Position numbers and translations under genes: made by a program | The notes under the pieces: generated by a model | Told to the model about the DNA's origin: nothing | Seen by the model: only the letters and a program-made list of their open reading frames with translations | Database searches by the model: none | Shown here: positions 15,572-60,220 of the stretch, piece after piece | How the letters are laid out: every line of letters starts with the position of its first letter | How positions within the stretch are numbered: position 1 is the first letter of the stretch | NCBI RefSeq assembly: GCF_051903065.1 | Contig: NZ_CP178438.1 | From: Escherichia coli | Lineage (GTDB): Bacteria > Pseudomonadota > Gammaproteobacteria > Enterobacterales > Enterobacteriaceae | Reading direction: 5' to 3' (one strand) | Length of the DNA stretch: 64,000 nucleotides

Positions 15572-15868
15572 TGTATTCGACAACCGATGCCTGATGCGCC
15601 GCTGACGCGACTTATCAGGCCTACGGGGTGTACTGAACTGTAGGTCGGATAAGACGCATGGCGTCGCATCCGACAACCGATGCCTGATGCGTCGCTGACG
15701 CGACTTATCAGGCCTACGGGGTGAACTGAACTGTAGGTCGGATAAGACGCATGGCGTCGCATCCGACAACCGATGCCTGATGCGCCGCTGACGCGGCTTA
15801 TCAGGCCTACGGGGTGTACTGAACTGTAGGTCGGATAAGACGCATGGCGTCGCATCCGACAACAATCT
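15572..15868. repeat. REP/BIME tandem array (3 units, about 92-bp period)
   Basis: Three near-identical units ...GATGCCTGATGCGCCGCTGACGCGACTTATCAGGCCTACGGGGTG-ACTGAACTGTAGGTCGGATAAGACGCATGGCGTCGCATCCGACAAC. Confidence 0.9.
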
Positions 15869-20486: not shown

Positions 20487-21128
20487 ATTGTCGGATGCGT
20501 CGCGTGGCGCATCCGACACCATGCGCAGATGCCTGATGCGACGCTGACGCGTCTTATCATGCCTACAGGCCTGAACCGTAGGTCGGATAAGGCGCTCGCG
20601 CCGCATTCGACACCATGCGCCGATGCCTGATGCGACGCAGGCGCGTCTTATCATACCTACAGGCCTGAACCGTAGGTCGGATAAGGCGCTCGCGCCGCAT
20701 TCGACACCATGCGCCGATGCCTGATGCGACGCAGGCGCGTCTTATCATGCCTACAGGCCTGAACCGTAGGTCGGATAAGGCGCTCGCGCCGCATCCGACA
20801 CCGTGTGCCGATGCCTGATGCGACGCTGGCGCGTCTTATCATGCCTACAGGCCTGAACCGTAGGTCGGATAAGGCGCTCGCGCCGCATCCGACACCGTGC
20901 TCAGTGCCTGATGCGACGCTGATGCGTCTTATCATGCCTACAGGCCTGAACCGTAGGTCGGATAAGGCGCTCGCGCCGCATTCGACACCATGCGCCGATG
21001 CCTGATGCGACGCAGGCGCGTCTTATCATGCCTACAGGCCTGAACCGTAGGTCGGATAAGGCGCTCGCGCCGCATCCGACACCATGCTCAGTTGCCTGAT
21101 ACGACGCTGGCGCGTCTTATCATGCCTA
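20487..21128. repeat. large REP/BIME tandem array (about 6 units, about 640 bp)
   Basis: Repeated palindromic units GATGCCTGATGCGACGC-GGCGCGTCTTATCATGCCTACAGGCCTGAACCGTAGGTCGGATAAGGCGCTCGCGCCGCAT-CGACACC; ORF-track hits inside are artefacts. Confidence 0.9.
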
Positions 21129-21281
21129 CCCACTGTTTTTACACCGATAATTTTTCCCCCACCTTTTTGCACTCATTCATATAAAAAATATATTTCCCCA
21201 CGAAAACGATTGCTTTTTATCTTCAGATGAATAGAATGCGGCGGATTTTTTGGGTTTCAAACAGCAAAAAGGGGGAATTTC

Positions 21282-42904: not shown

Positions 42905-43060
42905 ACGACTGCCGGATGCGGCGTGAACGCCTTATCCGGCCTACGGGTGGCGTGAGAATTTGTAGGCCTGATAAGACGCGCAAGCGTCGCATCAGGCATC
43001 TGCACACGACTGCCGGATGCGGTAAACGTCTTGTCCGGCCTACATTTCGCCCGTAGGCAG
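42905..43060. repeat. REP/BIME cluster
   Basis: GCCGGATGCGGCGTGAACGCCTTATCCGGCCTAC ... GTAGGCCTGATAAGACGCGCAAGCGTCGCATCAGGCA ... GCCGGATGCGG. Confidence 0.85.
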
Positions 43061-57467: not shown

Positions 57468-58291
57468 GTGTGCTCATTAATGAAAAACTGCATTCGCGGC
57501 GGCTGAAATGGCGCTGGCCGCTCTCGCGTCAGGTGACCTTAAGCATTGGCACGTTAGCGGTTTTACTCACTGTATGGTGGACGGTGGCGGCGCTGCAACT
57601 GATTAGCCCGCTGTTTTTGCCGCCGCCGCAACAAGTACTGGCAAAACTGCTCACCATTGCCGGACCGCAGGGATTTATGGACGCCACGCTGTGGCAGCAT
57701 CTGGCAGCCAGCCTGACGCGCATTTTGCTGGCGCTACTCGCGGCGGTGTTGATCGGCATTCCGGTCGGGATCGCCATGGGGCTAAGCCCGACGGTGCGCG
57801 GCATTCTGGATCCGATAATCGAGCTTTATCGTCCGGTGCCGCCGCTGGCTTATTTGCCGCTGATGGTGATCTGGTTTGGTATTGGCGAAACCTCGAAGAT
57901 CTTACTGATCTATTTAGCGATTTTTGCGCCGGTGGCGATGTCGGCGCTGGCAGGGGTGAAAAGCGCGCAGCAGGTTCGCATTCGTGCCGCCCAGTCGCTG
58001 GGTGCCAGCCGTGCGCAGGTGCTGTGGTTTGTCATTTTGCCCGGCGCGCTGCCGGAAATCCTCACCGGATTACGTATTGGTCTGGGTGTGGGCTGGTCTA
58101 CGCTGGTGGCGGCGGAGCTGATTGCCGCGACGCGCGGTTTAGGATTTATGGTTCAGTCAGCGGGTGAATTTCTCGCGACTGACGTGGTGCTGGCGGGGAT
58201 CGCGGTGATTGCGATTATCGCCTTTCTTTTAGAACTGGGTTTGCGCGCGTTACAGCGCCGCCTGACGCCCTGGCATGGAGAAGTACAATGA
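57464..58291 (+). CDS. tauC: taurine ABC transporter permease, 275 aa
   Basis: Hydrophobic permease overlapping tauB and tauD ends. Confidence 0.9.
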
Positions 58292-59139
58292 GTGAACGTC
58301 TGAGCATTACCCCGCTGGGGCCGTATATCGGAGCACAAATTTCGGGTGCCGACCTGACGCGCCCGTTAAGCGATAATCAGTTTGAACAACTTTACCATGC
58401 GGTACTGCGCCATCAGGTGGTGTTTCTGCGCGATCAAGCCATTACGCCGCAGCAGCAACGCGCGCTGGCCCAGCGTTTTGGCGAACTGCATATTCACCCT
58501 GTTTACCCTCATGCCGAAGGGGTTGACGAGATCATCGTGCTGGATACCCATAACGATAATCCGCCAGATAACGACAACTGGCATACCGATGTGACATTTA
58601 TTGAAACGCCACCCGCAGGGGCGATTCTGGCAGCGAAAGAGTTACCTTCGACCGGCGGCGATACGCTCTGGACCAGCGGTATTGCGGCCTATGAGGCGCT
58701 CTCTGTTCCCTTCCGCCAGCTGCTGAGCGGGCTGCGTGCGGAGCATGATTTTCGTAAATCGTTCCCGGAATACAAATACCGCAAAACCGAGGAGGAACAT
58801 CAACGCTGGCGCGAGGCGGTCGCGAAAAATCCGCCGTTGCTACATCCGGTGGTGCGAACGCATCCGGTGAGCGGTAAACAGGCGCTGTTTGTGAATGAAG
58901 GCTTTACTACGCGAATTGTTGATGTGAGCGAGAAAGAGAGCGAAGCCTTGTTAAGTTTTTTGTTTGCCCATATCACCAAACCGGAGTTTCAGGTGCGCTG
59001 GCGCTGGCAACCAAATGATATTGCGATTTGGGATAACCGCGTGACCCAGCACTATGCCAATGCCGATTACCTGCCACAGCGACGGATAATGCATCGGGCG
59101 ACGATTCTTGGGGATAAACCGTTTTATCGGGCGGGGTAA
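58288..59139 (+). CDS. tauD: taurine dioxygenase (Fe/2-oxoglutarate dependent), 283 aa
   Basis: TauD/TfdA-family size and HxD-containing segment (WHTDVTF). Confidence 0.9.
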
Positions 59140-59152
59140 TACGAGAGTGGAC

Positions 59153-59240
59153 GGTCCCCTCGCCCCCTTGGGGAGAGGGTTAGGGTGAGGGGGCGTTCAC
59201 CGTGCTTTCAACAGGTTAACTCCCCCTTTCTGAGAGGAAA
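59153..59240. repeat. GC-rich G-tract/C-tract imperfect palindrome between convergent tauD and hemB
   Basis: CCCCTCGCCCCCTTGGGGAGAGGGTTAGGGTGAGGGGGCG ... CTCCCCCTTTCTGAGAGG; resembles a dispersed intergenic palindromic element and may act as a bidirectional terminator. Confidence 0.4.
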
Positions 59241-59245
59241 CAAAA

Positions 59246-60220
59246 TTAACGCAGAATCTTCTTCTCAGCCAAATCCAGCGCAAAGTAGCTGAAAATCAGA
59301 TCCGCACCCGCACGCTTAATCGAACCTAAGCTTTCGAGCACCACTTTCTCTTCATCTATAGCACCCGCCAGCGCGGCGAACTTAATCATCGCATACTCAC
59401 CGCTCACCTGATACGCGCCAATCGGCAATTCAGTACGTTCACGCAGCTCACGCACGATGTCGAGGTACGCTCCAGCAGGTTTAACCATCAGGCAGTCTGC
59501 GCCCTGGGCTTCATCCAGCAGTGATTCACGAATCGCCTCGCGACGGTTCATTGGGTTCATCTGATAGCTTTTGCGGTCGCCTTTTAATGCGCTTCCGGCA
59601 GCTTCACGGAACGGACCATAAAAGGAAGAGGCGAACTTGGTCGAATACGACATAATCGCCGTATCTTTAAAGCCCGCAGCGTCCAGCGCCTGACGAATCG
59701 CCTGTACCTGGCCATCCATCGCGGCGGAAGGGGCGATGAAGTCTGCACCTGCAGCAGCTGCAACCACGGCTTGCTTGCCTAAATTTTCCAGAGTCGCGTC
59801 GTTGTCGACGCCATGCTCGCACAGCACACCGCAGTGACCGTGAGAAGTGTATTCACAGAAGCAGGTGTCTGACATGACAATCATTTCTGGCACGGTCTGC
59901 TTGCAGATGCGCGACATACGCGCCACCAGTCCATCTTCCCGCCAGGCATCGCTGCCGGTTTCATCGGTATGGTGAGAGATGCCGAAAGTCATCACGGAAC
60001 GAATACCGGCGTTGGCGATGCGTTCAATTTCGCGTGCCAGATGTTTCTCTGGAATGCGCATCACGCCAGGCATGGCTTCAACGGCTTTGTAGTCGTCAAT
60101 TTCTTCTTCAACAAAGATCGGCAACACCAGGTCGTTAAGGCTAAGTGTTGTCTCTTCAAACATAGCGCGCAGCGCAGGAGATTTGCGCAGGCGACGAGGG
60201 CGTTGGATTAAGTCTGTCAT
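59246..60220 (-). CDS. hemB: porphobilinogen synthase, 324 aa (ORF open to 60253)
   Basis: [27 protein letters not shown]-terminus; active-site Lys and Cys-rich zinc site ([12 protein letters not shown]). Confidence 0.95.

Follow-up and report, generated by a model that had tools for sequence, protein, structure and literature searches.

The GC-rich element between tauD and hemB of Escherichia coli is a catalogued BoxC repeat copy and one of two common alleles of the gap

Introduction

BoxC, first described in the 1990s and rediscovered in 2000 as the potential intrastrand triplex (PIT) element by Hoyne, Maher and colleagues (PMC4666352), is a family of short, GC-rich intergenic repeats, present in E. 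coli and some relatives, that has been catalogued under the names BoxC, PIT, TMECO and HPG1, the naming sources being Bergler 1992; Hoyne, Maher et al. 2000 and 2002; Holder et al. 2015 (PMC4666352); and Kaplan et al. 2016 (PMC5100583). TMECO elements follow the pattern CCCTCNCCC-N3-6-GGGNGAGGG-N3-GGGNGAGGG[G/T/C/-] and count 23 strict copies in strain MG1655 (PMC4666352). An old K-12 GenBank record tabulates 33 BoxC repeats, which are 51–59 bp long. BoxC copies are commoner upstream of ORFs (PMC4666352). Oligonucleotides of the family adopt hairpin, quadruplex and intrastrand triplex structures in vitro (PMC4666352, PMC5100583). The evidence for the triplex, which is of the purine-motif type, comes from circular dichroism (CD), NMR and primer extension, and in-vivo DMS footprinting did not detect it (PMC4666352). 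A role in ‘genomic instability’ was proposed for the family by Holder et al. (PMC4666352), in whose summary of Hoyne and Maher 2002 the PIT elements had neither promoter nor terminator activity.

REP/BIME elements resemble BoxC in being short, GC-rich, imperfectly palindromic, intergenic, multi-copy and often located between convergent genes. However, the two families share no sequence similarity, and BoxC copies number in the tens whereas REP copies number in the hundreds. Intrinsic bidirectional terminators likewise place a GC-rich stem-loop between convergent genes. Moreover, Dar and Sorek 2018 describes Rho-dependent transcripts that end just after stable stem-loops devoid of a U-tract, with rut sites immediately downstream.

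Here, we analyzed a GC-rich element that lies between the convergent genes tauD and hemB within a 64-kb stretch of E. coli DNA (hereafter, the window). An earlier note, which was based on the letters of the window, had suggested that this element belongs to a dispersed repeat family other than REP, that it can form a stable imperfect hairpin or a G-rich structure, and that it might serve as a bidirectional terminator. We show that the element is a BoxC copy that alternates in E. coli with an unrelated, shorter hairpin allele, and we weigh the functions that have been or could be ascribed to it.

Results

The gap between the two genes measures 106 bp (59140–59245); the tauD stop codon ends immediately before it and the hemB stop codon occupies 59246–59248 (Table 1). 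In strain MG1655, hemB is annotated with a length of 975 nt at 388,753–389,727, as mapped to the window by alignment. An 801-bp stretch around the element had a match in 5,424 of the 5,426 complete E. coli genomes, where the annotation names tauD and hemB, and was 99% identical to MG1655. Both strings that had originally drawn attention to the gap are present in it, CCCCTCGCCCCCTTGGGGAGAGGGTTAGGGTGAGGGGGCG at 59156–59195 and CTCCCCCTTTCTGAGAGG at 59220–59237. The small ORFs that mechanical calling places across the gap are only 26–35 amino acids long, start with TTG or GTG and overlap tauD or hemB. Current RefSeq annotation contains no feature in the tauD–hemB gap.

Table 1. Features of the tauD–hemB region, in window coordinates
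Feature	Position	Strand	Basis or remark
tauD (taurine dioxygenase) CDS	58288–59139	+	ORF list; annotated tauD in matching E. coli genomes; left gap boundary
Rho-dependent termination peak	58992 (= MG1655 388,499)	-	hemB strand, antisense inside tauD (PMC7815308)
Full BoxC unit (core plus conserved flanks)	~59144–59203	+	15-copy alignment; edges approximate, within a few bases
Predicted long imperfect hairpin	59147–59200	+	outer stem GTGGACG (59147–59153) / CGTTCAC (59194–59200)
36-nt core	59157–59192	+	CCCTCGCCCCCTTGGGGAGAGGGTTAGGGTGAGGGG; identical to TMECO no. 5 and HPG1 no. 13
C-block	59157–59165	+	CCCTCGCCC
Loop	59166–59170	+	
G-block 1	59171–59179	+	GGGAGAGGG
TTA between the G-blocks	59180–59182	+	
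G-block 2	59183–59191	+	GGGTGAGGG
Single-copy remainder, including CTCCCCCTTTCTGAGAGG	59194–59245		one place per genome; 59194–59203 overlaps the approximate BoxC 3' flank
hemB (porphobilinogen synthase) CDS	59246–60220	-	ORF list; right gap boundary

The GC-rich element is the catalogued BoxC/PIT/TMECO/HPG1 copy of this locus. Its 36-nt core aligns with MG1655 388,664–388,699, and these coordinates as well as the sequence are those of TMECO no. 5 in Table 1 of Holder et al., where the copy is classified as type A, with one mismatched triad, on the sense strand (PMC4666352). It is also HPG1 no. 13, for which a midpoint of 388,688 on the + strand is given, 31 nt after tauD and 54 nt from hemB (PMC5100583). 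A regular expression for the published TMECO pattern matched 59157–59191 on the + strand, and the HPG1 sequence GGGAGAGGGTTAGGGTGAGGG was found as an exact match at 59171–59191 with a C-rich 5' flank. The suggestion of a dispersed repeat family other than REP was therefore correct, and the family is BoxC. At least two catalogues already include this exact copy, and no function has been demonstrated for the family since it became known in the early 1990s. With other BoxC/PIT/TMECO elements it shares the 36-nt sequence, the genome position, the intergenic location, the multi-copy nature and the family flanks; the core does not differ at all, but most copies have GAACAGGCCAGCAC as their 3' flank where this one has GGCGTTCACCGTGC. 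It stands alone and not in an inverted pair of a type-A and a type-B copy. Compared with the HPG1 motif, described as a G-quadruplex/hairpin/duplex switch, there is no difference either, as this is the same object seen from a G-quadruplex viewpoint.

The contrast with REP that the earlier note had drawn was also confirmed. The REP consensus GCCKGATGCGRCGY...CTTATCMGGCCTAC matches the window at 11 places, all of them outside 59140–59245. These matches include two tandem arrays, one of three copies with 93-bp spacing (15589–15810) and one of seven copies with ~94-bp spacing (20531–21129), and an isolated perfect REP on the minus strand at 42962–42997. No Rfam covariance model matched: the best hit, an unrelated eukaryotic element, scored 17.5 bits (E 0.67), below the threshold of 40.

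Next to identity, copy number supports the repeat nature of the element. In BLAST searches, a 56-nt query (59150–59205) located a median of 18 places in each genome (range 1–34), with matches in 5,425 of the 5,426 E. coli genomes. Within the 64-kb window itself, GGGAGAGGGNNNGGGTGAGGG occurs once compared to 0.02 occurrences expected. We then retrieved 14 further K-12 loci, in which the published TMECO pattern served to locate the copies. All 15 K-12 copies, including the one between tauD and hemB, are intergenic, and the latter is overlapped by no annotated feature. Aligning the 15 type-A copies revealed conservation beyond the 36-nt core, with a 5' flank of G.GC.CG.ACGGTC, in which ACGGTC is invariant or nearly so, and a 3' flank of GAACAG.CC.GCAC. 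The window copy has kept the 5' flank as GTGGACGGTC, and its 3' flank is a minority variant. The unit is thus approximately 56–60 bp long here, in agreement with the repeat lengths in the old K-12 GenBank annotation. As a side observation, the yjdP–phnP gap of MG1655 (L014, 131–160) contains a truncated type-B-like copy, CCCCTCACCCCAATGGGGAGAGGGagaaaa, which consists of the C-block and one G-block only; it lies ~40 nt upstream of a full type-A copy in head-to-head orientation and is omitted by the strict pattern.

The part of the gap beyond the unit is not repetitive. The stretch 59194–59245 is confined to the 3,602 genomes with the BoxC allele, at one place in each of them. The earlier note had treated CTCCCCCTTTCTGAGAGG as part of the repeat element, which our data contradict: it is single-copy sequence of this locus. 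We also considered whether CTCCCCCTTTCTGAGAGG might be the remnant of a decayed inverted pair, in which the type-A copy once faced a type-B copy, as is the case at five K-12 loci. CTCCCCCTTTCTGAGAGG starts 27 nt after the core, which is the spacing seen in the fepB–entC, ygfF–gcvP and alx–sstT pairs, the A-rich tail behind it resembles the tail of the partners, and a multiple alignment was likewise suggestive. However, the local alignment against four partners scored 12, compared to a mean of 12.6 for shuffled sequences, with 1,465 of the 2,000 shuffles scoring at least as high as the real sequence, and 59194–59245 is single-copy. With a score at the level of shuffled sequence and a single-copy stretch, a type-B origin of CTCCCCCTTTCTGAGAGG is unsupported, and we consider a decayed pair improbable.

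Folding predictions depended on the extent of the sequence and on the strand. For the whole gap (106 nt), the + strand RNA gave -44 kcal/mol, which is not exceptional (z -1.5). For the 58-nt unit 59146–59203, the + strand RNA reached -36.7 kcal/mol (z -4.0), and none of 200 shuffles was as good; the stable imperfect hairpin that had been expected was thus borne out by RNA folding, for this unit and strand. The corresponding + strand DNA gave -14.9 kcal/mol (z -2.4), and the - strand (hemB-sense) RNA showed a weak fold of -24.7 kcal/mol (z -1.4). As read directly off the sequence, the predicted hairpin joins the C-block to G-block 2, with one G.T/G.U wobble among the pairs; the flanks lengthen this stem, and G-block 1 is located further inside. 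The - strand folds less well because wobble pairs become mismatches on the complementary strand. The stem between the C-block and G-block 2 is kept in all 15 copies of the family consensus fold. No compensatory changes were seen in this 15-copy fold, since the copies are nearly identical. With regard to the alternative of a G-rich structure, the four-G-tract pattern GGGN3GGGN3GGGN3GGG has a single match in the window versus 0.01 expected, and the G-tracts of the element fit a G-quadruplex motif, so that part of the earlier suggestion is plausible as well. When single-stranded, the G-rich (+) strand would accordingly be expected to fold back into the long imperfect hairpin or, judging from the in-vitro work on the family, to adopt a purine-motif triplex or a G-quadruplex instead.

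Comparison across genomes revealed that the tauD–hemB gap is dimorphic in E. coli, with ~3,600 genomes (about two thirds) carrying the 106-bp BoxC allele and 1,819 genomes (about one third) carrying a 39-bp allele. The short allele, GGGAGAAATGCCGGGTTGGATAACCCGGCATAATGATCA, is unrelated to BoxC (examples are L017, 201–239; L018, 200–238; and L020, 563–601). It contains a perfect, GC-rich hairpin of 10 bp, ATGCCGGGTT-GGAT-AACCCGGCAT, for which the two strands fold equally well (z -3.0 and -3.8). The replacement of one allele by the other spans exactly the distance from stop codon to stop codon. To cover outgroups, we then searched a single genome of each species for a HemB C-terminus pattern. 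The 39-bp hairpin was present in E. albertii (L022; hemB 3' end 90% identical to the window), in E. whittamii (L088; 94%) and in two divergent Escherichia lineages, L028 (92%) and L073 (96%). Escherichia sp. E1V33, whose hemB 3' end is 98% identical and therefore within E. coli-level divergence, carries the BoxC type. Because the outgroup Escherichia all carry the hairpin allele, the sequence comparison identifies the 39-bp hairpin as ancestral and the BoxC allele as derived within E. coli in the broad sense. The top stem pair of the hairpin is T-A in E. coli and A-T in both E. whittamii and L028, and this one compensatory change suggests that the 39-bp hairpin is maintained by selection. The 106-bp allele was 94–100% identical in every row that we sampled across the ranking of the ~3,600 carrier genomes.

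Rare longer alleles of 157 and 204 bp also exist, in which one or two extra 51-bp tandem units are present (E. coli WG5::TT12A, L016, 201–357; Escherichia sp. E1V33, L086, 3579–3706). Each unit opens with the 5' flank of BoxC, followed by the beginning of the C-block (GAGTGCGGACGGTCCCCTC...), and in E1V33 the second G-block is also truncated. Such tandem alleles fit the published variability of TMECO loci, which does not by itself demonstrate that structure is the cause.

Consensus scans of the gap predicted neither a promoter nor a terminator, and the same was true for the 39-bp allele. The tauD gene is expressed only under sulphate starvation. As LB and M63 glucose do not induce it, Term-seq data from these media are silent on tauD 3' ends. 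In the MG1655 Term-seq tables for these two conditions (Adams et al. 2021, PMC7815308), no 3' end is listed between 388,400 and 388,899, and the lack of a curated hemB 3' end may merely reflect low expression or calling thresholds. The TERMITe supplements mention neither hemB nor tauD. The sole entry of the Term-seq tables in this interval is a Rho-dependent region on the hemB strand (Table 1). At its peak, 86 reads upstream and 33 downstream were counted without bicyclomycin (BCM), and 146 and 213, respectively, with BCM (PMC7815308, Supplementary file 2). Read-through therefore increased with the drug, at a Rho score of 3.8 (p 2e-9; PMC7815308); the score uses 800-nt windows, which makes the position coarse. 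Because this region lies beyond the element, transcription on the hemB strand appears to pass the BoxC copy before Rho stops it ~165 nt further on, inside tauD. The location of the Rho region also implies that hemB transcripts run ~250 nt beyond their stop codon and thereby overlap tauD at its 3' end.

Discussion

Taken together, we consider it very probable that the element is a derived BoxC copy that persists as a passive or selfish repeat and is not a bidirectional intrinsic terminator. Its identity, copy number, predicted folding and allele history come from the analyses above and from the cited papers, and we infer that it most likely has no dedicated function. According to this scenario, BoxC and ~50 bp of unique sequence would have been acquired jointly within E. 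coli, in place of the ancestral perfect hairpin of 39 bp. At most, it would then provide a very stable stem-loop that begins 8 nt after the tauD stop codon, in the 3' untranslated region of the tauABCD mRNA. By analogy with REP stem-loops, this structure could slow 3'-to-5' exonucleases, and we infer a possible role in RNA stability from this likeness: the BoxC copy may work like REP as a stem-loop in an mRNA 3' untranslated region. That the copy is passive is not provable from sequence, and the fact that BoxC replaced a hairpin apparently kept by selection leaves room for functional substitution.

The idea of a bidirectional intrinsic terminator, in which the GC-rich hairpin would stop RNA polymerase arriving from both tauD and hemB, draws on the site between convergent genes, on the very stable stem-loop predicted for the tauD-sense RNA and on the position of BoxC where the ancestral 10-bp hairpin, equal on both strands, used to be. 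Nevertheless, neither strand has a run of U after the stem (the + strand goes on with CGUGCUUUCAAC), the hemB-sense RNA folds no better than shuffled sequence (z -1.4), the Term-seq tables give no 3' end within the gap, and Rho-dependent termination on the hemB strand peaks ~165 nt past the element. In addition, reporter assays on the family reportedly revealed no terminator activity; these negative assays of Hoyne and Maher 2002 concern the family and not the tauD–hemB copy. In contrast to intrinsic bidirectional terminators, the BoxC copy has no U-tract or A-tract flanks, folds asymmetrically with respect to the strand and coincides with no mapped 3' ends. We therefore regard the terminator proposal of the earlier note as highly unlikely and the copy as an ordinary one, with no evidence that it ends transcription in both directions. 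We also judge an exonuclease barrier that acts without termination to be unlikely. According to this idea, which follows what is described for REP elements and Rho-dependent transcripts, the steady-state 3' end set by the BoxC hairpin would be that of the tauABCD mRNA or of Rho-terminated hemB transcripts trimmed back to it. It would suit the predicted -36.7 kcal/mol stem-loop so close to the tauD stop codon, as well as the Rho-dependent region downstream on the hemB strand, an arrangement that resembles the Rho-dependent transcript ends described by Dar and Sorek 2018. However, no 3' end is found at the element in the curated MG1655 Term-seq tables, whose conditions did not induce tauD, the hemB-sense fold is unremarkable, and copies of the family are not preferentially placed downstream of genes but lie more often upstream of ORFs (PMC4666352).

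The structural properties of the family raise the further question of whether BoxC acts at the DNA level, with a transient triplex or G-quadruplex on the G-rich strand stalling replication and promoting local rearrangement. In vitro, triplex formation and polymerase stops in primer extension were observed for the family, and loci that carry it are more variable than controls. The tauD–hemB gap is itself polymorphic, with alleles of 106, 39, 157 and 204 bp, and the 51-bp tandem units of the two longest have the BoxC 5' flank and the initial C-block bases at their start. On the other hand, the triplex went undetected by DMS footprinting in vivo, presence/absence variation is expected of any mobile or recently gained repeat irrespective of a structure-driven mechanism, and the 106-bp allele is highly stable, as judged from the 94–100% identity in the rows sampled among ~3,600 carriers. 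A non-B DNA element is thus about as doubtful to us as an exonuclease barrier. Lastly, the ancestral hairpin was probably a 3'-end structure for hemB and/or tauD. It is conceivable, if rather improbable, that BoxC has been retained as its substitute, for example as an exonuclease barrier upstream of the Rho site. If this were true, the 3,600 genomes with BoxC versus the 1,819 with the hairpin would offer the first clean test of a BoxC effect on neighboring transcripts.

For the passive BoxC copy that we favor, the significance is small, and its value is limited to annotation and to a natural comparison of two alleles. The element deserves the BoxC label, given that RefSeq records are blank at this position and sequence scans will otherwise flag it again and again. 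The dimorphic alleles and their distribution among outgroups are a small addition to the published record, and the two common alleles provide a natural comparison for the effect of BoxC on termination or mRNA stability.

Beyond Escherichia, the gap looks different again. In Citrobacter (L021, L033, L034, L043, L058, L064, L079 and L096), where tauD and hemB are also convergent, REP-like palindromes containing …GGCGAAGCCGCCATCCGGCA… are found downstream of hemB, and BoxC and the hairpin of Escherichia are both absent from these gaps. Palindromic elements of different kinds thus occupy this gap in different genera. Furthermore, half-BoxC-like hairpins (CCCCTCTCCCCGAAGGGGCGAGGGGAC and CCCTCTCCTGCGGGAGAGGGC) were observed ~200–260 nt downstream of hemB in Enterobacter sp. 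RIT418 (L089) and downstream of tauD in the Citrobacter-like L093 and L095. In these other genera, they may be related to the C-block/G-block hairpin of the BoxC family.
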